Assembly (NCBI GenBank): GCA_045545475.1
Contig: JAZQAZ010000024.1
Location: forward strand, 1 to 62,749
Source of the DNA: Clostridia bacterium
GTDB taxonomy: Bacteria; Bacillota; Clostridia; CAKSNL01; HGM11501
Direction of reading: 5' to 3'
Length of the DNA: 62,749 nt
Shown: piece by piece, positions 54,474 through 62,749 of the stretch
Layout of the letters: every line of letters starts with the position of its first letter
Numbering within the stretch: the first letter of the stretch is position 1
The notes under the pieces: model-generated
The model's input: the letters and a program-made list of their open reading frames with translations, nothing else
Database searches by the model: none
Told to the model about the DNA's origin: nothing
Made by a program: the position numbers and the translations under genes

Positions 54474-55465
54474 AAAATCTCCTCCAAAAACCATTCTTTT
54501 TTGTACTCAAGAGATATTGTTTCATCGTCATTGAATATAACAGGAAGCCACACATAAGAGCATTCAAGAAAATTTTCTGTGTTGTGGCGTTCAAACATCA
54601 TTATGTATTTATCTTCTGTGCCTTCAATCTTGAAAGCATATGTACTTTGGGTATTAAAGGTTGTTTTCGTATCGTCTCCTATGCAAGGATCGCCTATACA
54701 TTCCCAATCCTGCATAAGGTTATCAGTTCTGAAGGCTTTTGCCTGATTGAAATTCCAGCCCGTAAGGTCTGATGTAACAATATAGTACTTGCCCCTGCGG
54801 TAAACTATGGCAGGTGCTTCTCTCCAGTATGCCGCATCAATTCTTGCATATTCGTCTGTGCAGGAAAGATAGTCATCCGACAGCTTTACTGCATAAAGAC
54901 ATCTGTCCTCTTTTCCGTTTTCTATAACATGGCGGTCATAAATGTAATACGCCGTTCCGTCCTCGCACTTATATAAGGTGTTATCGCGGACAAACTTTCC
55001 GTCCAGGGGGCGACAGGTTCCGAGCCACTTATATTCCCCGTTCACCTTGTCGCAAACCGCAACACCCGCCTCTGCAGTGCCGGGAGCAGTTCCGTGGTCA
55101 CCGGGGTATGCCACATAGTGACACCACATAACATACTGCTTTGTTTTTTCGTTATATATAATCTTCGGTCTTTCAAGGCGCATAGGTGCTTTAAGGTCCC
55201 CCTCCGCATCCACGGATACCGGAAGAATTACGCCTTCATATTTCCAGTTTAATAAATCATCAGATTCATACATAACAACGCCAACTACCGTGGCAGCTCC
55301 GCCTTCTCCCTTTCCCGCCATGGGCTTTGCCTGAAGAGCCTGACCGTACCAGTGATATTTTCCTTCCGCAAAAATCACGCCACCGTCACTGGCGTTTATG
55401 ATATTACCATCGGTATCGTACCACTGCACAAATTCCGTTATTTCACCGTGTTTAAAGCTGTTCAT
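54470..55465 (-). CDS. Glycoside hydrolase family 43 (subfamily 24-like)
   Basis: YHWYG, DLLNWK, LERPKIIYN, REAPA, TGW, NTQST; no signal peptide. Confidence 0.85.
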   Translation of the reverse strand: MNSFKHGEITEFVQWYDTDGNIINASDGGVIFAEGKYHWYGQALQAKPMAGKGEGGAATVVGVVMYESDDLLNWKYEGVILPVSVDAEGDLKAPMRLERPKIIYNEKTKQYVMWCHYVAYPGDHGTAPGTAEAGVAVCDKVNGEYKWLGTCRPLDGKFVRDNTLYKCEDGTAYYIYDRHVIENGKEDRCLYAVKLSDDYLSCTDEYARIDAAYWREAPAIVYRRGKYYIVTSDLTGWNFNQAKAFRTDNLMQDWECIGDPCIGDDTKTTFNTQSTYAFKIEGTEDKYIMMFERHNTENFLECSYVWLPVIFNDDETISLEYKKEWFLEEIL

Positions 55466-55594
55466 AAAAACGCTCCTTCCTAAAATTTCACATGATCCCA
55501 TCTTATAACAATATTATACCACTCAGAAAAGTCTCCGTCAATATGAAATAGTTGCTATACACAGGACAAAGTTGCTGTTTTACCTTAAAACACA

Positions 55595-55621
55595 AAGCCC
55601 CCGGAAAAATTCCGGGGGCTT
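55595..55621 (-). terminator. Terminator hairpin
   Basis: aagcccccggaa-aaa-ttccgggggctt. Confidence 0.8.
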
Positions 55622-55632
55622 GCATTCTTTAA

Positions 55633-56541
55633 TTATTTACTTATCACATAAAAACCTTTTTTACTTTCGCTGAATATAAGCTCGGTGTCCCATTCTTCCA
55701 GGGTTCTCGTTATGCTTGCAGGGTCCAAAACAGATACCTTTCCGTCCTTTTCGGAAAGAAGCACTATAAAGTGTCCGTTGTCGGTAAAGTGTCCTTTTTT
55801 CATACTTGTAACAACGACACTTCCTTCTTTAAGAAGACTTTTAAACGTTTCAAAATCGCTTGTAAAAACCTCCCTGCCCTTTAAACCAACGACAGGCGGA
55901 TATGCACTCATAAGAGTCCATTTTGTGCCGGAGCCGGGAACATAAAGGTCGTTTTCAAGTGTCCAGTCTATAACATCAGAAAGGGTTGTCCTTTCTTCTT
56001 TTGCCACATAGTTTATCGCCATTGTAAGTGCAATGGGGCCGCAGCCTGATCTTGCAACAGAGGATGTTCCGTAGGGCATATCCAGAAACTCCGGATTGTT
56101 TTGCGATATATAAAAGCCCCTGCTTTTTTCATCCACCGACGGATGTGTAATTCCCATAAGATTGCGGTCAAGCATATTGTGCTTTTTCATACTTCCGCAT
56201 TCCATTATAAGGTCACTGTTATCCTTTTTAACAAGGCAAACAACCCCGTCATGCTCTTTGAAAAGAAACGCCTGTTCCATATAATTTTCAATATCCGCTT
56301 TTGTTATGTCTTTGACATCCTTTTCAGCCATGACACTTATATAAAAGCTTATTTCTTCTTCATTATAGCTTTTTTCGTCAACAACATATATCTTTTTTCC
56401 ATCAAGCGACAATTCTTTAGTCACTTCATCAAACATGCTCCTGAATACAGTCTTTTCTGCAACTTCAGTTGTTTCTGTGCATCCTGTAAAAAACATCATA
56501 AGAGCCAACAGAAACAAAAAGCCGGCCCACTTTGCTTTCAT
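55633..56541 (-). CDS. Lipoprotein with peptidase C39-like domain
   Basis: Lipobox FTGC; SGCGP, GHFIVL, VLDP. Confidence 0.87.
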   Translation of the reverse strand: MKAKWAGFLFLLALMMFFTGCTETTEVAEKTVFRSMFDEVTKELSLDGKKIYVVDEKSYNEEEISFYISVMAEKDVKDITKADIENYMEQAFLFKEHDGVVCLVKKDNSDLIMECGSMKKHNMLDRNLMGITHPSVDEKSRGFYISQNNPEFLDMPYGTSSVARSGCGPIALTMAINYVAKEERTTLSDVIDWTLENDLYVPGSGTKWTLMSAYPPVVGLKGREVFTSDFETFKSLLKEGSVVVTSMKKGHFTDNGHFIVLLSEKDGKVSVLDPASITRTLEEWDTELIFSESKKGFYVISK

Positions 56542-56554
56542 ACAATCCTCTCCG

Positions 56555-57250
56555 TTATATATTTATCTCAGCCGTATGAGGTCTGTGATCCGATGCAATA
56601 ATTGCAGGAATGTCCGCAGATATAACTTCTATATCTCGGCTCACAAATATGTAGTCAATCTTTATCTTCGGCTCATCCGAAGGGAAGCTGAAAAGAGGGG
56701 CGGAAAAAGCCGCAGCTGTATCCCTCATCCGCTCCCTGATAGGCATCAGAATCTCTTCTTCGTGAGTTATATTAAAGTCACCCATAAGAATACATTTTTT
56801 ATTTTCTAAGTTCTCTAAAACCGTTCTGATTGCGTTTTCCTTTTCGTCATCATTAAGTCCGAAATGAGTTACTAAAACGGTGATACCGCCCTCTAATGTA
56901 ATTTTGAGAAGGCATCTTGTTTCATGGGTAGGAGTCTTTTCGGCAGCAGAGTCGGGAATCATAATTTTCTCCCACTTTACAACAGGAATCTTTGAAAGAA
57001 AGCCGTTGCCGTAGGGATTTTCTCCCCCTACCATAATAGCTTCACCAAAACCGTAATACTTCATTCCTGTAAGAGAGGATAAAATTTTCACCTGCTCGTC
57101 ATACTCGGGATTTGTTCCCTTACCTCTCATTTCGTTAAGTCCTATAAATTCAGCACCACTGTCTTTTATTACTTTTGCCATTGCCTCAAAGTCAATTTTC
57201 TTGGTAATGTAATTTTGACAATGCTGAGTGTTAAATGTCATTATTTTCAT
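56555..57250 (-). CDS. Endonuclease/exonuclease/phosphatase family protein
   Basis: TFNT, GLNE, YGNGFLS, THF, MGDFN, IDYIF, SDH. Confidence 0.92.
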   Translation of the reverse strand: MKIMTFNTQHCQNYITKKIDFEAMAKVIKDSGAEFIGLNEMRGKGTNPEYDEQVKILSSLTGMKYYGFGEAIMVGGENPYGNGFLSKIPVVKWEKIMIPDSAAEKTPTHETRCLLKITLEGGITVLVTHFGLNDDEKENAIRTVLENLENKKCILMGDFNITHEEEILMPIRERMRDTAAAFSAPLFSFPSDEPKIKIDYIFVSRDIEVISADIPAIIASDHRPHTAEINI

Positions 57251-57258
57251 GTTGCACC

Positions 57259-58113
57259 TCACAAAGTTATTGTTTCACCACTCTTTACCGACAGGGTTTT
57301 TCCGTCAATATTAAGCCATATTTCTTTTAATGTAGGATTATAAATCTTTCGTCCGTCAGCACTTGTAACAAGAGAGTTATATGCTTTCACATAATCGTAT
57401 ATTTCAATGTTCGTTGCATACCAGGTATCAATCTTACCGGAGATTTCACTGCAAAATTTTTCAATCAAGTTCCAGCCGTCATTACCGTCAAACTCATAGG
57501 TGTGTCCCCATAGATAAAAGAGTCTCGGATACATAGCTGAAGAATAAAGGCGTGTTTCGTCAATTTCAAGGAACTTTTTCACCATATCAAAAAGTGCAGA
57601 ATTTTTATGGTGAGCCGTAGGCATCCAGGAAAGGAAATCCGATGGAAGCATAAAGCTGTCATTATCGCCGCCAAGCGTACGAGAATATACTACGCCCATA
57701 CTCTCTATTAAAGTGCGCAGCGTTTCATAGTCGTTTCCGTTGTGCATTGCTTTTACTCCCGAATCGGGGTATGCCATACCGCGGATTATCATATCAAAGG
57801 TCGCTTCAAGCTCCTTACGGCATTCCAAAATATCCGTAATTGCAAAAGCAGGCTTTAATCCCGCGCCGGGAGCCATATGATTCTTTCCGTGAAGGGCAAC
57901 CTCGTGTCCTTTACCAAGAATATGCTCCTTTATTTCTTCAACTGTTATTCTGTTAGATGCACCTAAAAATCCGCTGTTTATATTAAAAGTGCCTTTAAGT
58001 CCGTAGCGGTCTAAAATTTCGGCAAAACGCAAATCCTGCCTTACTCCGTCGTCATAGCTGAAGGTTACCGCCTTTAATTTTCCGCCGGGGTATCTCATAA
58101 ATACATATCTCAT
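57259..58113 (-). CDS. Polysaccharide deacetylase (CE4-like)
   Basis: TFSYDDG, GTFNINS, HEVALHGKNH, MAYP, YLWGH. Confidence 0.9.
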   Translation of the reverse strand: MRYVFMRYPGGKLKAVTFSYDDGVRQDLRFAEILDRYGLKGTFNINSGFLGASNRITVEEIKEHILGKGHEVALHGKNHMAPGAGLKPAFAITDILECRKELEATFDMIIRGMAYPDSGVKAMHNGNDYETLRTLIESMGVVYSRTLGGDNDSFMLPSDFLSWMPTAHHKNSALFDMVKKFLEIDETRLYSSAMYPRLFYLWGHTYEFDGNDGWNLIEKFCSEISGKIDTWYATNIEIYDYVKAYNSLVTSADGRKIYNPTLKEIWLNIDGKTLSVKSGETITL

Positions 58114-58193
58114 AAAATTCCTCCAAAAAAGCATTCACTCAAATAAAATCATATTACTTTTTCACAATAAAAGCAACAATATAATAAAGCCAA

Positions 58194-59093
58194 TTACATT
58201 GTTAAATTTTCAGAAAGTGCCTTTTCCACTTCCTCTTTTTCAGGTATTGATGGTGCAGCTCCCTTTCTCGACACGGCAATTGCCGATGCCATCGAAGCTT
58301 TTTCAAGTACGTTTTGTATGTTTTCACCATCAGCTATTCCCTTTATAAAGTATCCCGTAAAGGTATCTCCTGCTGCCGTGGTATCAATGACCTTTACATC
58401 AAAAGTATCGTGATAAGCTTCGGTTGTCTCATCAATATAAACGCATCCGTATTTCCCCATAGTAAGCATAATTTTGAGTTTAGGATATTTACTTTTTATA
58501 AATGAAACACTGTCTTTTGCGAACGGCTTTCCCGAGAGTCTTTTCATCTCCCCGGAGTTTAATATAATATATGAAAGATGGTTAAAATCAATTTCTTCTA
58601 TCTTTTCATTAAACGGCGATGGATTAAATATGATACACATATTTTTCTTATAGGCCTGTTCCACTATGTAAGAGACATTGTTTATCTCATTCTGCAAAAG
58701 AAGGATATCTCCTGCCTCAAAGTTTTCAAGAACGCCTGCTATATATTCTTCTGTTATCATACTGTTTGAACCGGAATAGAGAAAAATCGAATTTTCCCCT
58801 TCTTTATTTACCTGAATAATGGCATGTCCGTTTTTTACATCAAGCTTCTTTATCAGTGATGTGTCAACGCCGCTTTCTTTAAGAATATCTGTAAGAATTT
58901 CGCCGCCTTCTCCGACGCATCCGGCATGAAAAACTTTGGCCCCCGCTCTCGCAAGAGCTATTGATTGGTTGAGCCCTTTACCTCCGGGAAATATGTTAAG
59001 ATTATCGCTTGCCAAAGTTTCTCCGGGGGTTACAATATGATCCAAAGAATATACATAATCTATATTGCATGAACCGAAATTAAGAATTTTCAT
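58194..59093 (-). CDS. rbsK: Ribokinase (PfkB family)
   Basis: PGGKGLNQ, LLQNE, DTTAAGDTF, GAAPSIP. Confidence 0.88.
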   Translation of the reverse strand: MKILNFGSCNIDYVYSLDHIVTPGETLASDNLNIFPGGKGLNQSIALARAGAKVFHAGCVGEGGEILTDILKESGVDTSLIKKLDVKNGHAIIQVNKEGENSIFLYSGSNSMITEEYIAGVLENFEAGDILLLQNEINNVSYIVEQAYKKNMCIIFNPSPFNEKIEEIDFNHLSYIILNSGEMKRLSGKPFAKDSVSFIKSKYPKLKIMLTMGKYGCVYIDETTEAYHDTFDVKVIDTTAAGDTFTGYFIKGIADGENIQNVLEKASMASAIAVSRKGAAPSIPEKEEVEKALSENLTM

Positions 59094-59181
59094 AAAATCA
59101 CCTCTTTTTATTATATCACTAATAGTATTTTTTTCAAGAGCAAAAAAGGAAAGACTGAAAAGCACAGTCTCCCTTTTTATA

Positions 59182-60291
59182 TTATCTGAAATACACGGTA
59201 TATTCTTTTAATTTCTCTTTCCAGTTATAGTCTTCATGGTTTCCCGTGTTTCTGATATGGAAAACCACACGATCGGAATATACTTCAAAAGCCAAATACT
59301 GTGCCAGTTTAGGCGTTCCGGTTGGCACAAAGTACTTTTGTTCAGCCTCTCCGCCATAGCCTGTCAAACCATCATCCTCATAAAGGCTTCTGTCAAATGG
59401 GCGGAGTCCTCCCATATGCACAAAGGTAAATTCATATTCTTTTTCTTTAGAATCTGTTGCGGTAAGGTTCATATCAATCGGTAGGTTATCATCTTTTATG
59501 TGCAAAACTGCACCGGAGGAAAACTCCTTATAGCAGGACCTTTCCCCGTGAACGTGACCGTAAAGATAAAATGCGTTTTTATGGCCTTTAAATATATCGT
59601 AAAACAATACGGTATTTCCGTTTACCATCGTTTCTTTAAGTTCGCCGTCATTATAGTAATATATTGCAGACAAATGTCCCACAACGAAAATGGGCTTGTT
59701 CCCTTCGGGGTCAATTTCTGCCATTTTTTTCTTAACCCAGACAAGAGTTTCGTCGCTGTAGCTTCCCTCGTGGGAATTAAACGCCGTGTTGGGATCGATA
59801 TTTATTCCGATAAAATCAATGCCGTTTACCACATAATGGAATGCACCCCAGTAAAGCTCTCCGGGCTTTTCAACGGATGTTAATATGATTTTTTCATTAT
59901 CAGGAAGACTCCCGAATGCATTATCCATTAAGTCATAGAAATCAGTGGTGTTATAGGGCTCATTTTCCTCTGTAGCAATATCTCCAAGAATCATATCGTT
60001 GTTCCCGGCAACGTACATTACCTTGCCGTCCTTTGCACTTTCGGCAACGCACGCGTGCAGTTTCTCCTTAAGATCAAGGAAGTTTTTCTTGGGCCATGCG
60101 CAGGATTTATTCCAGTATGGATAATCCGATACATTATCGCCACCAATTAAAGCAATATCAGCCTTGCCGAACTCTTCCATTGCAAGCTCTTTAGCTTTGA
60201 TAAGCGAGCTTCTTACAGTTGTGGGATAGTCCAGCATCGCCTGCTGATTGTGTATGTCGGTATAACAAAATCCTGTTAATATTTTTTCCAT
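59182..60291 (-). CDS. Metallophosphoesterase
   Basis: TDIH, GGD, GNND, GHVH; GGAGG RBS before MEKIL. Confidence 0.82.
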   Translation of the reverse strand: MEKILTGFCYTDIHNQQAMLDYPTTVRSSLIKAKELAMEEFGKADIALIGGDNVSDYPYWNKSCAWPKKNFLDLKEKLHACVAESAKDGKVMYVAGNNDMILGDIATEENEPYNTTDFYDLMDNAFGSLPDNEKIILTSVEKPGELYWGAFHYVVNGIDFIGINIDPNTAFNSHEGSYSDETLVWVKKKMAEIDPEGNKPIFVVGHLSAIYYYNDGELKETMVNGNTVLFYDIFKGHKNAFYLYGHVHGERSCYKEFSSGAVLHIKDDNLPIDMNLTATDSKEKEYEFTFVHMGGLRPFDRSLYEDDGLTGYGGEAEQKYFVPTGTPKLAQYLAFEVYSDRVVFHIRNTGNHEDYNWKEKLKEYTVYFR

Positions 60292-60375
60292 TAGCTTATC
60301 CTCCAATTTTAAGTAATACATTAATTATACTACTGCTTATATAAAAAGTCAAAAGAAAATACAACCGGACGTATA

Positions 60376-60999
60376 CTAGCAAATTCTCAGTTCCGAATCG
60401 TAAATAAAATCCCCCTCTGAAAGATGGATTCTTTCTGCATTATATTTATCAAGGATTGTTTTAAAATCCATAAGCTTAGCCGTCATAATGGGATCTGAAA
60501 ACGGTATTAAATAAGATTTCATAGCACAACCAATAGGCATTACCTCAACAAAATTGCAATCGCCATCTATATATTCTGTTCTTCTTAATAAATTTAAAAT
60601 ATCATCGAAAGTGTATGCTCCGTTAATTATTACAGTGTTTCTGAAATCATCAAATCGTAAAGTAAGAGAAACGGCGTTATCAATTGCAGGATGATTCCCA
60701 AGTTCTGACATATGGTGTCCCCAGCCACCTTCAGCAAAATAAAAAGTATTTTCCAAATGATATGCAAAGAACAGCTCTTCAGGATTTTTAATTTCCTCAG
60801 CACAGCTTAATGAAACATCAGTGGTAAACCATCCTGTATTAGTATCAGGATGATGTCCCTGAAACAGTGTTACTATATCCATCCCCATAGGTTCATAATA
60901 CTCAAATGTTTCAAATGCATATGCGATAAGCTCTTTTACGCTTCTTTTATCATCAAATTCTATTTCTCCTCCATCAAAAAAGTTGTATTTTTGAATCAT
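60376..60999 (-). CDS. Hypothetical protein
   Basis: GGAGG RBS before MIQKY; EGGWGHH motif; no recognised family. Confidence 0.75.
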   Translation of the reverse strand: MIQKYNFFDGGEIEFDDKRSVKELIAYAFETFEYYEPMGMDIVTLFQGHHPDTNTGWFTTDVSLSCAEEIKNPEELFFAYHLENTFYFAEGGWGHHMSELGNHPAIDNAVSLTLRFDDFRNTVIINGAYTFDDILNLLRRTEYIDGDCNFVEVMPIGCAMKSYLIPFSDPIMTAKLMDFKTILDKYNAERIHLSEGDFIYDSELRIC

Positions 61000-61163
61000 A
61001 AAAAGGCATCCTCCCACTATTTTTATTTACAAAATATATTATACATTATTATTGTGGATTTTTCAAGATAAGAAAAAACTCATCCAAAGTTAAACCTCCT
61101 TTTCTTGCGAAAGAACAACAAAACGGAGCAGGAGTCAGGTAAAAAAGCAAAAATGTAATGTAT

Positions 61164-61634
61164 TTACTTTTCTGAATTCAAATATAAATGCAATATTTCA
61201 TCTATATATTCTTCATCAACTTCATAGCTATCGCTAATTTCATTGCAAACCCAAGCAAAATAATCTGAAATCGCCTCAATAAAAGAACGAAGAATTTCAA
61301 CCATTGTGCTATGTTCTGTACGAACAGGCAATCTAATCACTGGAACATCTTCTTTATTTGTAAACATGGGATAAGAAATAAAATCTGCCCAGTAAAAAAG
61401 GTAGCCAACCCTATTGCCATCTCTTTTAACCAGGTAATGCTTGTACTCAAAATCAACCCATACGGAAATAGGGATATTGAAATTCTGCTCAACCCATTTT
61501 ACAAATTTGCATAATTCATTTTGTGTTTCAATCGGAATTCTCTTATCAAAACCAATATCAAATCCACTTCCAACATTTTCAGATGTTTGCAAGTGGATAT
61601 CTTTGGTGCGAAACCACAAATTTTCCTTTTTCAT
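61164..61634 (-). CDS. Hypothetical protein
   Basis: AAGGAG RBS; ATGA overlap with the four-helix-bundle gene. Confidence 0.72.
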   Translation of the reverse strand: MKKENLWFRTKDIHLQTSENVGSGFDIGFDKRIPIETQNELCKFVKWVEQNFNIPISVWVDFEYKHYLVKRDGNRVGYLFYWADFISYPMFTNKEDVPVIRLPVRTEHSTMVEILRSFIEAISDYFAWVCNEISDSYEVDEEYIDEILHLYLNSEK

Positions 61635-61984
61635 TTGATATTCTCCTTCGCAGTCTGGCAGGACGAAATCAACATCACTCGAAGCGATGTGCATTTAGAT
61701 GATAATGCCTTAAAATTTTGGTCATCAATATATTTCGTTCTGAAAAGCAACTCCAACCAATATCCAGTTTCGCTTGCTTCTTTGAGTGCGATTTCAAGTT
61801 TTGAAATAAAATCTTTCTTGTCTTGTGCATCTTGTGCTTCGTGGATGTTGGCACAAATCGAAGTACCGCTTCTGCCAATTTGATTAGAAATGATAGATTC
61901 GTGATTTGCTTTCAAATGCTTTACAAGATTTATTATATCCACAGAAAAGTCCATAGAAAGTTCTGCAAGTTTATTTTCTTTCAT
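61631..61984 (-). CDS. Four helix bundle protein (23S rRNA IVP / Avd-like fold)
   Basis: NQIGRSGTSI.ANI.EA, DFISKLEIALKEASETGYWLELL; GGGAGG RBS. Confidence 0.92.
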   Translation of the reverse strand: MKENKLAELSMDFSVDIINLVKHLKANHESIISNQIGRSGTSICANIHEAQDAQDKKDFISKLEIALKEASETGYWLELLFRTKYIDDQNFKALSSKCTSLRVMLISSCQTAKENIK

Positions 61985-62005
61985 AAAACCGCCTCCCTTT
62001 TGCCA

Positions 62006-62034
62006 ATTATATCATAAAAACCGAAGCTTTTCAA
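62006..62034 (-). promoter_or_regulatory. Sigma-A promoter for the four-helix-bundle gene
   Basis: TTGAAA-17 nt-TATAAT with extended -10 TG. Confidence 0.65.
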
Positions 62035-62201
62035 TGCTGTATCGCCGATGGCGATATGATGCATTTGCTTTACAAATATGATGTTGCCCGTTTCACTCGC
62101 AATGATGCGATGTTTGCTAATAATACTAGGCGAAGCCGACATCATTTCCGAAGGAACCATCATTAGTGCAAGCGTCATCATTTGCCGTAGGCAAACATCA
62201 T
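62034..62201 (-). repeat. ATGATG/CATCAT-punctuated mini-hairpin array
   Basis: Four ATG(A/C)TG copies (62034, 62056, 62078, 62102) facing four CATCAT copies (62140, 62158, 62176, 62196), separated by small hairpins. Confidence 0.75.
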
Positions 62202-62244
62202 TCAAAAAATCATCTTTGTCTTGGTAGACAAAAGTGACTTTTCA

Positions 62245-62570
62245 TGGCTCCCCTGAATTGGACCATCGCAAATTTTGAAAAAATTTGCTGAGCGACAACT
62301 CAGGTTAATGACCATTTACCTTTGTGTAAACTACCAAGTGCCACTTAAAATATTAAAGATCCGGGCGACACCTTGTAGCAACAAAGCTTGTTTACACTAC
62401 CGTGCACAAGCTTTGCGCCGGACGACTTCGCAACGCTCCAGGCTTTGTTCCGATGTTTCACATCTCCACACGGCTAACGAGGAATATATGAACAGTTTTC
62501 ACTGTTGTATCTTAAGTCTCTGCTTGGATTACCAAGCGAGTATATCATCCCCTCTGCTCTCGCTTCAGGG
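62245..62570 (-). ncRNA. Candidate structured RNA or degenerate tRNA-Asn-like locus
   Basis: tRNA-Asn-like 5' end TCCTCGTTAGC (62483) and 3' end GTCCAATTCAGGGGAGCCA (62245); many internal hairpins; closing CCCUGAA/UUCAGGG stem. Confidence 0.4.
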
Positions 62571-62581
62571 TATTTGTTATA

Positions 62582-62614
62582 GAACATAACCACGGCCTTG
62601 CCGTGGTCATGTTC
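62582..62614 (-). other. Strong hairpin immediately downstream of the 5S rRNA (processing or pause stem)
   Basis: gaacataaccacggc-ctt-gccgtggtcatgttc. Confidence 0.6.
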
Positions 62615-62616
62615 GG

Positions 62617-62733
62617 TTCCGGCGGCGACCTATCTTCCCGGACCGTTGCCAGTCAAGTATTGTCAGCACTGCAGAGCTTAACTTCTGTGTTCGGGATGGG
62701 AACAGGTGTGACCTCTGCGTAATAACCACCGAA
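62617..62733 (-). rRNA. rrf: 5S ribosomal RNA
   Basis: Reverse complement reads TTCGGTGG...CACACCTGTTCCCATCCCGAACACAGAAGTTAAGC...GATAGGTCGCCGCCGGAA, 117 nt. Confidence 0.97.
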
Positions 62734-62749
62734 TATGGAGTACCTTTTT

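Follow-up and report, generated by a model that had tools for sequence, protein, structure and literature searches.

tRNA genes are classic landing sites for mobile DNA, in E. coli tyrT every repeat closes with the 3' end of tRNA-Tyr in copy, and the intervening sequences (IVSs) of 23S rRNA are excised by RNase III. Here we compare with these systems a 239-nt tRNA-Asn-like element found behind the 5S rRNA gene of a Clostridia bacterium, in a stretch of 62,749 nt (the window) that forms the end of contig C24 of a metagenome-assembled genome (MAG; G000, 2.74 Mb in 50 contigs, 95% complete). The sequence runs that have words in common with the stretch carry mostly gut-metagenome labels, several of them sheep, goat or bovine, and the host is an uncultured ruminant-gut bacterium of an order represented by 14 genomes in the collection compared. 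By sequence comparison, the element is a rearranged tRNA-Asn(GTT) paralogue at the usual place after the 5S gene, its middle replaced by lineage-specific hairpin modules. We read it, with moderate confidence, as a non-decoding tRNA-derived trailer element on the transcript of the rRNA operon (rrn), of which the window copy is a recombinant.

Functionally, the nearest analogy is with the RtT RNAs (E. coli tyrT, RF00391), which are likewise linked to a tRNA trailer. In a passage of PMC4986893 that cites Bosl and Kersten 1991, RtT RNA is presented as a non-coding RNA that originates in a tRNA-operon trailer and is set free when the tRNA is processed. The element described here differs from the RtT RNAs in that it gives no RtT match at E<=10, is built on tRNA-Asn after an rRNA operon, contains other hairpin modules and is known from DNA. 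Structurally, it comes closest to the attL/attR repeats of islands and prophages, since a direct repeat of a tRNA 3' part lies past an intact gene in a fast-changing region; the displacement of tRNA 3' fragments by tRNA-integrating elements is general knowledge, touched upon as a concept in bioRxiv 10.1101/2020.11.02.365908. However, the trailers described below span just ~100-300 nt, have no integrase, contain inverted copies of the T-loop and are composed of modules that are conserved and covary; 5' partial copies occur too. The nearest conceptual analogy is with the IVSs of 23S rRNA, which also are extended hairpins in the loops of a stable-RNA gene, and a gene of the 23S_rRNA_IVP family lies near the element; here, however, the host is a tRNA copy and not 23S rRNA, and the IVP gene stands outside the element. 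With transfer-messenger RNA (tmRNA) the likeness is one of topology only, namely tRNA-like ends, a large body between them and an encoded CCA; the element lacks a T-arm, a tag reading frame and a 7-bp acceptor stem, and the genome's tmRNA lies elsewhere (C29:19993-20335). The bacterial tRNA genes with a group I intron in the anticodon loop also far exceed 76 nt, but the element has no Intron_gpI match, its inserts are in the D-arm and the T-loop, and its exon parts are degenerate. A full-text literature search found no description of such elements, although an earlier one may exist.

A tRNA-Asn paralogue behind the 5S rRNA gene

Since the 5S rRNA gene is on the minus strand, the tRNA-like element reads on that strand as well (Table 1). 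An earlier inspection of the letters alone (the sequence-only reading) had noticed tRNA-Asn-like ends 239 nt apart and had proposed descent from tRNA-Asn. Both claims are borne out: the ends lie on the minus strand at that distance, relatives have a real tRNA-Asn(GTT) after the 5S gene, and the element keeps the order of that gene as far as GCCA. In G013, for instance, both assembled 5S-distal ends consist of the 5S gene, a hairpin, a spacer and a normal tRNA-Asn(GTT), and the 98-nt spacer of the window is the positional counterpart of the G013 spacer. Within the unit, the acceptor 5' strand and TAGC are followed far downstream by TTGGTAG (D-loop), then in the anticodon-loop region by TCATTAACC, where the real tRNA-Asn gene has CTGTTAACC, and further by GTTGTCG (variable region and start of the T-stem), CCAA, the acceptor 3' strand, G and CCA. 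Apart from one or two changes, G011 and G013 have the first 12 nt (62483-62472) at the start of their partial units and real tRNA-Asn genes as well. TTAACC is common to the real tRNA-Asn and to all four known copies of the element (that of the window, one in G003 and two in G009), and GAGCCA is retained in 4/4 of these copies and in the real tRNA-Asn genes. The segment 62337-62324 is probably homologous to the D-loop region of tRNA-Asn.

The unit cannot decode, because it has lost U33 and the anticodon-stem 5' strand and its T-loop is replaced. Thus, the sequence-only reading was right that neither an intact anticodon arm nor a T-loop is present: the loop TCATTAA lacks its 5' stem strand, and a 9-bp hairpin occupies the place of the T-loop. 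As that reading had expected, ARAGORN found no tRNA or tmRNA in 55000-62749 and Rfam found no family within the element even at E<=10; at the same threshold, 61900-62749 gave no match to tRNA, tmRNA, Intron_gpI, group II introns or RtT (RF00391). The same tools recognised the real tRNA-Asn genes of the relatives, and at E<=1 over nine related loci Rfam matched only real tRNAs, 5S rRNA and Gut-1, leaving the tRNA-like elements unmatched. The G000 assembly contains 35 tRNA genes and the tmRNA. A tRNA-Asn gene is absent from its tRNA set, most likely because rrn-linked copies were left unassembled in the MAG. A coding reading of the region (plus-strand open reading frame 62275-62589, 104 amino acids) was considered and rejected; its fragmentary tblastn matches in relatives are consistent with nucleotide conservation alone.

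All the hairpins that had been listed from the letters were found, two of them in the spacer and so outside the tRNA-like unit. A proposed long-range pair is likewise present as complementary segments, GTGTAAAC (62397-62390) and GTTTACAC (62331-62324); by inspection, G003 retains 8/8 of its pairs via G-U and the G009 copies about five. For the possible stem between CCCTGAA (62570-62564) and TTCAGGG (62257-62251), the two segments are complementary in the window; their pairing competes with the local helix CCTGAGTTG/CAATTCAGG, which is predicted to be alike in 4/4 homologous copies. An acceptor-like closing stem is not what the relatives conserve. The window copy has the GCCA, and its TCCTC pairs with GGGGA, followed by two mismatches, so that the 5' and 3' ends pair over 5 bp only. 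In the full-length relatives no intact acceptor strand can be recognised at the 5' end. What is predicted in 4/4 copies is one and the same nested fold of the 3' domain, with changed helix sequences. In it, the old 3' strand of the anticodon stem and the variable region pair with the old 3' strands of the T-stem and the acceptor; this helix encloses one hairpin and leaves G(G)GAGCCA free (7 nt of the window copy, GGAGCCA), with no acceptor stem. The minus strand folds at -110.9 kcal/mol (z score -4.9, equalled by 0/100 shuffles), and the fold of the plus strand is weaker (z -3.1).

Table 1. Features of the region behind the 5S rRNA gene, in the order of transcription of the minus strand
Feature	Positions	Strand	Basis or remark
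5S rRNA gene	62733-62617	(-)	Rfam RF00001, 90.7 bits, model positions 1-120; contig stops just beyond
15-bp hairpin without U-tract, directly 3' of the 5S gene	62614-62582	(-)	sequence
5S-tRNA spacer, 98 nt	62581-62484	(-)	holds the next two hairpins and the CCCTGAA segment
Hairpin GCTTGG/CCAAGC	62537-62522	(-)	in 5S-tRNA spacer
Hairpin AACAGT-GAAA-ACTGTT	62506-62491	(-)	in 5S-tRNA spacer
tRNA-like unit, 239 nt	62483-62245	(-)	starts with TCCTCGTTAGCC, ends with GGGGAGCCA
tRNA-Asn-like 5' end TCCTCGTTAGCC: acceptor 5' strand and start of D-stem	62483-62472	(-)	relatives
Hairpin P1 of D-arm insert, GATGT-GAAA-CATC	62464-62452	(-)	covariation
Second hairpin GCC-T-GG / CCGGC; joint between two element types	62443-62417	(-)	presents conserved motif GAGCGTTGCGAAGTCG (62438-62423)
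53-nt core: 10-bp stem, inner CAC-GGTA-GTG mini-hairpin, tail TTGCTACAAGGTGTCGCCC	62415-62363	(-)	identity with relatives
Hairpin CAAAGCTTGT/ACAAGCTTTG	62415-62406 / 62392-62383	(-)	
D-loop-like remnant TTGGTAG, then GTTTACAC	62337-62324	(-)	order as in TTGGTAGAGCAC of real tRNA-Asn
Degenerate anticodon loop TCATTAA (real gene CTGTTAA), without U33 and anticodon-stem 5' strand	62311-62305	(-)	aligned block TTAACC
3' domain: helix CCTGAGTTG/CAATTCAGG around hairpin GCAAATTTT-TTC-AAAATTTGC, which replaces the T-loop	62304-62252	(-)	predicted fold
Hairpin CTGAG/CTCAG	62303-62299 / 62292-62288	(-)	
Hairpin GCAAATTTT/AAAATTTGC	62288-62280 / 62276-62268	(-)	
3' tail GGAGCCA: end of acceptor 3' strand, discriminator G, encoded CCA	62251-62245	(-)	GAGCCA conserved
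Terminator-like hairpin, then TTTTTT	62243-62204	(-)	sequence and fold; unlisted by simple consensus scan

A consensus scan detected no promoter-like site between the 5S gene and the element or inside the core, and co-transcription of the element with the rRNA is plausible from the arrangement. One RNA-library contig (62547-62683) overlaps both the 5S gene and the spacer; since a contig does not prove a single transcript, this is weak evidence. The long hairpin next to the 5S gene may serve as a stem for processing. A post-5S hairpin of different sequence occupies the same place at both assembled 5S-distal ends of G013, which belongs to another genus (L005 87-120 and L032 87-120).

Building blocks, conserved core and joint

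The sequence-only reading had considered a single tRNA gene hit by a single palindromic insert. This was not borne out, for the element is a mosaic of a 5' partial tRNA-Asn unit and an element of the type present in G003 and G009. The 5' third is what we term a D-insert unit: TCCTCxTTAGCC, about 58 nt with two hairpins, and GTYGGTAGAGCAC. G011 has two such units, both upstream of the real tRNA-Asn, and G013 has three, one upstream and two downstream, the last of which is continued by a GTT-type loop, a T-arm that contains an insert of 57 nt, and GCCA. Across six units from three genomes, 30/30 cells of hairpin P1 are paired and 5/5 pairs have changed on both sides, a covariation score that 0/500 shuffles reach; this and all other covariation statistics given here come from few, related sequences. 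In a 185,579-species collection, the exact pattern of the unit was found only in G011 and G013, plus one uninspected Acidobacteriota record. A match of the pattern in G004 lies in seemingly coding sequence and was taken as chance.

The remainder of the window copy belongs to type W, the form of the element in G003 and G009. That homologues exist, a point on which the sequence-only reading had made its own proposal depend, was established by BLAST, which among 61 relatives finds type W only in G003 (one copy) and G009 (two copies). A full type W consists of the hairpin H_a (27 nt, identical in G003 and G009), the hairpin H_b, the core hairpin H_c, a variable region and the 3' domain. In G003 it comes directly after the 3' part of a real tRNA-Asn and its terminator. 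Both recur at the end of the element, where the T-loop contains a hairpin; the stretch from TTAACC to CCA plus the terminator is therefore directly repeated ~320 nt apart. Between G003 and G009, 11 of the 19 pairs of H_b show compensatory changes, one has changed on one side and seven are unchanged; none is broken, and the G-U pairs sit on the tRNA-sense strand. The two G009 copies have their 5' 140 nt in common and differ in the 3' remainder.

Conservation is concentrated in the 53-nt core. It is identical to that of G003 at 53/53 positions and to those of both G009 copies at 52/53, while identity from the core to the CCA falls to 77/118 and 64/117 in the two G009 copies. As a neutral-level calibrator we used the third codon positions of rpoB (69% identity between G000 and G009), after a PfkB kinase proved to have no orthologue in the relatives. 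With the core at 52-53/53 and the rest at the level of rpoB third positions, we conclude that the core is under strong constraint and that the rest drifts. A 41-nt part of the core (62404-62364), with up to three mismatches, was found in 3/401 genomes of the class. A 26-mer of the core had no occurrence in viral contigs, a 19-mer of the core had none in JGI metagenome contigs, and blastn against phages and plasmids gave no match. A 20-mer of the variant 3' end matched three stretches in JGI contigs; the two inspected, L015 and L017, are GC-rich, seemingly coding and without a tRNA context.

The window copy joins the D-insert unit to type W at a motif common to both, GAGCGTTGCGAAG (62438-62426); the overlapping motif GAGCGTTGCGAAGTCG is common to the H_a of G003 and G009. 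When scored as a type W element, the window copy has the core and the 3' domain and lacks the 5' half of H_a, the whole of H_b and the outer 5 bp of H_c. It therefore looks like a recombinant. The seven nucleotides TCCGGCG (62422-62416) are seen in the window only, in neither of the two forms, and complete the hairpin GCCTGG/CCGGC. To ask how far reads from other samples cover the region, we relied on assembled Logan contigs from four runs, which derive mostly from relatives and are uninformative on where RNAs end and how abundant they are. The interval 62435-62596 is covered by RNA-library as well as DNA contigs of relatives. A sheep-metagenome contig differs by one letter over this interval, departs below 62435 and continues as an ordinary short unit, and contigs of two RNA libraries also stop at 62435-62445. 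The sequence-only reading had named mis-assembly at the rRNA repeat as a finding that would speak against it, and no evidence of mis-assembly was found: as the two forms share just ~13-16 nt at the joint, and as the seven window-only nucleotides complete a hairpin, we rate it unlikely.

A third tRNA-Asn-derived element, type Z, was seen at L002 590-930, L008 ~1100-915 (-) and L037 1-155. It has a GTT-type loop (GGCTGTTAAC) and a conserved body (GACCGCG..CCGGTG..GATGAAGGGA..TTCGGAAGAAACA), after which come a T-arm whose loop contains a hairpin, GGGGGAGCCA and a terminator. A body similar to that of type Z follows tRNA-Ser(GCT) in G000 (C40 ~59200 (-)).

tRNA trailers and neighbouring genes

The element of the window is one of a family of trailers in its genome. 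We scored as a trailer any case in which, with at least 300 nt of downstream sequence, a direct copy of at least 10 nt and an inverted copy of at least 9 nt of the last 26 nt of the tRNA gene lie within 400 nt of it. In G000, 9/32 tRNA genes carry such direct and inverted copies of their own 3' end downstream, as compared with 0/35 for the upstream sequences and 0/28 at 2.0-2.4 kb downstream. The operon-terminal tRNA genes of this genome number 23, of which 20 have at least 300 nt of contig downstream. The layout is recurrent: an inverted copy of the T-loop region (9-14 nt) just past the terminator is followed by 70-290 nt of hairpins and then by 10-23 nt that directly repeat the tRNA's own 3' end, often through the CCA, and a second terminator. 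If trailers are defined as hairpin modules that close with a copy of the local tRNA 3' end, CCA included, before a terminator, the window element belongs to them: it ends in CCAATTCAGGGGAGCCA, with a hairpin and a T-run behind it. The same layout is present in G003 and G009.

Modules recur among the trailers, and one of these has an H_b-like motif, CCGGTGG...GATGAAG. A two-hairpin module, GACAGTCC-GGTG-GGACTGTC plus GGCTTTTC-CGCA-GAAAAGC, follows different genes in different genomes: tRNA-Tyr (G009, G007), tRNA-Ser(GGA) (G007, G010), tRNA-Thr(CGT) (G000) and the type W element (G003). At every one of these places its flanks agree with the tRNA found there, and compensatory changes are seen in its stems. 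In G000, tRNA-Tyr is without the two-hairpin module and a Gut-1 array is found there instead. Past the second copy, the tRNA-Thr and tRNA-Gln trailers do not go on with what remains of the tRNA 3' end.

A conserved two-hairpin module stands after tRNA-Thr, tRNA-Gln, tRNA-Ser and tRNA-Tyr (G000 C34:58118-58260, C47:11063-11200 and C10:171100-171400 (-); L079, L080, L081, L084). It is bracketed by inverted and direct copies of the local sequence from the T-loop to the 3' end, and among the compensatory changes of its stems is GGTGG/CCACC versus GACGG/CCGTC. In the trailer of tRNA-Leu(CAA) (G000 C2 ~91000 (-)), the acceptor 3' strand of the copy reads TCATC in place of the original CCGGC and pairs with a GATGAG located upstream in the insert; a new 6-bp acceptor-like stem results, followed by A and CCA. 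tRNA-Pro(CGG) (G000 C6:4869-4945 (-)) is preceded, within 400 nt, by 14 nt that copy its 5' end, the only such case among 35.

Downstream of the element, searches with Pfam, NCBIfam, PHROGs and PADLOC identified one member of the IVP family, a metallophosphoesterase and two proteins that match no family significantly, and no transposase, integrase or nuclease among these genes. Beside the nine other trailers, no recombinase, nuclease or recurrent protein gene was evident, as judged from lists of open reading frames without family searches. The phosphoesterases of G003 and G000 are 95% identical as proteins, yet different elements stand between that gene and the tRNA-Asn site; the region therefore turns over fast. 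The two genes without a family match (176 and 213 amino acids) occupy 60376-61694 (-), between the IVP-family gene and the metallophosphoesterase gene, and G003 has non-coding elements in their place. The IVP gene itself (61631-61984 (-)) belongs to the 23S_rRNA_IVP / TIGR02436 four-helix-bundle family and is weakly Avd-like; it has a promoter-like site of its own and lies outside the element, 260 nt downstream of it.

Between the element and the IVP gene, an array of small hairpins (62204-62040 (-)) has the spacer AATGATG about five times and then its complement CATCAT four times. Its fold consists of nested helices that bear side hairpins (z -3.4), and its match to Gut-1 is weak (RF01706; 24.7 bits, E 0.023). 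Its depth in RNA-library contigs of relatives is 50-450, far above that of the tRNA-like element. Gut-1 RNA is listed in PMC2864571 as 'human gut only', with organism and function entered as not known. In G000 we found nine Gut-1 matches above the Rfam gathering score at seven loci (C48:43088-43264, C48:54511-54585, C47:57276-57430, C9:1890-1965, C4:20558-20734, C20:74007-74078 and C31:41-217), six of which lie 36-254 nt downstream of a tRNA gene on the same strand; the seventh is at the start of a contig. Gut-1 also follows tRNA-Asn-type elements in relatives (L037, 53.8 bits; L035, 43 bits). All four IVP-family genes of G000 stand directly behind a Gut-1-type array, the three others being C18:1930-2238, C47:57490-57795 and C48:43336-43626. 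Two of the arrays (C47, C48) are above the Rfam cut-off and two are variants recognised by eye, with AATGATG (window) and GCTAAAT (C18) as their spacer words; word and complement change together between loci. The link between Gut-1 and the 23S_rRNA_IVP family looks like an unreported one.

Competing explanations and significance

Ancestry in tRNA-Asn, loss of decoding, a mosaic build, selection on some of the modules and membership of the trailer family are established at the level of sequence comparison. To account for them by a tRNA-derived trailer element, we suppose that a partial duplication of tRNA-Asn at the DNA level was followed by module insertion and recombination, and that the window copy is a recombinant that has lost the first two hairpins of type W. 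Read-through would carry transcription of the rrn operon on into the element, its tail, as far as the terminator-like hairpin, and the inherited closing helix, the free GGAGCCA tail and the terminator would give the RNA a defined and stable 3' end. The conserved core would be the selected part, and its partner could be a protein or the element's own propagation machinery. The selected modules may serve the cell, as a functional RNA, or only themselves, as a selfish element.

A number of observations weigh against such a trailer element. The family of the core is tiny, with four copies in three species of one genus, and the modules are low-copy, at one to four per genome for the motifs counted. 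With no transposase, integrase or nuclease nearby, its mobile origin lacks an identified engine. An invariant core and compensatory changes are what one would expect of an RNA useful to the host. The joint near 62435 is bridged by no contig of the four runs and rests on a single assembly. Finally, no transcript of the element was seen in these runs (62248-62305 had no cover and the rest had a depth of 0-12, as compared with 50-450 for the neighbouring array and ~16,000 for the 5S gene), which is not evidence of absence.

We therefore weighed other explanations against it. The element may specify a structured non-coding RNA useful to the host, cut from the rrn precursor by the tRNA-processing enzymes, its tRNA-like ends being handles for processing and stability; the 53-nt core would then be functional and, by analogy with what has been proposed for RtT RNAs, the RNA might act as a tRNA-Asn-specific decoy or regulator. 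An invariant core between flanks at the neutral level, the covariation of P1 and of H_b (with its G-U pairs on the sense strand), the retention of GAGCCA and the terminator in 4/4 copies, a sense fold that beats the antisense one and the lack of a promoter-like site after the 5S gene all agree with this possibility. We entertain it tentatively, because the window copy is without the 5' half of H_a and without H_b, its ends pair over 5 bp only, the full-length relatives lack a recognisable intact 5' acceptor strand, the conserved 3' helix leaves 7 nt unpaired, presence and composition vary between close relatives, and the distribution is 3/401 genomes searched. A bolder version, which we regard as doubtful, would have each operon-terminal tRNA gene of the order spawn a structured 'shadow' RNA that bears the parent's 3' sequence and CCA and is matured by the tRNA-processing machinery. 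With its invariant core, the Asn version would mimic one particular tRNA; it might, for instance, sequester a factor by which uncharged 3' ends are read, or be a handle for the neighbouring cassette of Gut-1 and the four-helix-bundle (Avd-like) protein.

Classical integration would provide a different history, in which integrase-borne islands entered the T-loop or anticodon loop of tRNA-Asn repeatedly, regenerating the gene and displacing its old 3' end, and were later deleted. Such scars would explain the direct repeat of the tRNA 3' part and terminator in G003, the direct repeats of the G000 trailers and the hypervariability between the tRNA-Asn site and the phosphoesterase gene. In the window, no intact tRNA-Asn lies upstream of the element. 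We think this history unlikely: no integrase is nearby, and scars would be expected to decay neutrally and not to keep an invariant core and compensatory pairs. Moreover, the 5' partial units upstream of the intact tRNA-Asn in G011 and G013 are not a product of 3'-end integration, and the trailers of tRNA-Thr and tRNA-Gln do not continue into the rest of the tRNA 3' end. It is also unlikely that an assembly chimera wrongly joined a 5S-distal partial tRNA-Asn unit to a type W element of another locus, even though the window ends in a collapsed rRNA repeat, contigs of three runs (X1, X19, X3) stop or diverge at 62435-62445 with none bridging, and no run contains more than 0.23 of the sampled words; the overlap at the joint is below usual assembly word sizes, and the hairpin there is completed by letters of the window only. 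Hardly credible, lastly, is a working tRNA-Asn gene with introns removed from the RNA. The tRNA-Asn order is kept from the 5' end to the CCA and the assembly has no other tRNA-Asn, but neither group I nor group II introns match at E<=10, the would-be exons have lost or altered U33, G34, the T-loop and the 5' strand of the anticodon stem, the ends pair over 5 bp only, no joints across the element are seen in the four runs, and relatives have normal tRNA-Asn genes beside such elements.

The trailers extend the theme of landing sites and RtT RNAs to something far more elaborate, with covarying and partly invariant modules on copies of tRNA ends at about a quarter of the tRNA genes (9/32). If the modules are RNAs with a job, they would constitute an undescribed tRNA-specific class; the shadow RNAs, if real, would be a new class of tRNA-templated regulatory RNAs, the tRNA counterpart of the IVSs of rRNA. 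If they are selfish, they would be a new kind of miniature element on stable-RNA genes, without a visible enzyme. The position of Gut-1 after tRNA genes and before 23S-IVP-family genes is a side lead that is perhaps more useful, Gut-1 having had no organism or function since 2010. Either way, elements of this kind account for assembly breaks near rRNA and tRNA genes in such MAGs and for tRNA finders missing or miscalling genes.

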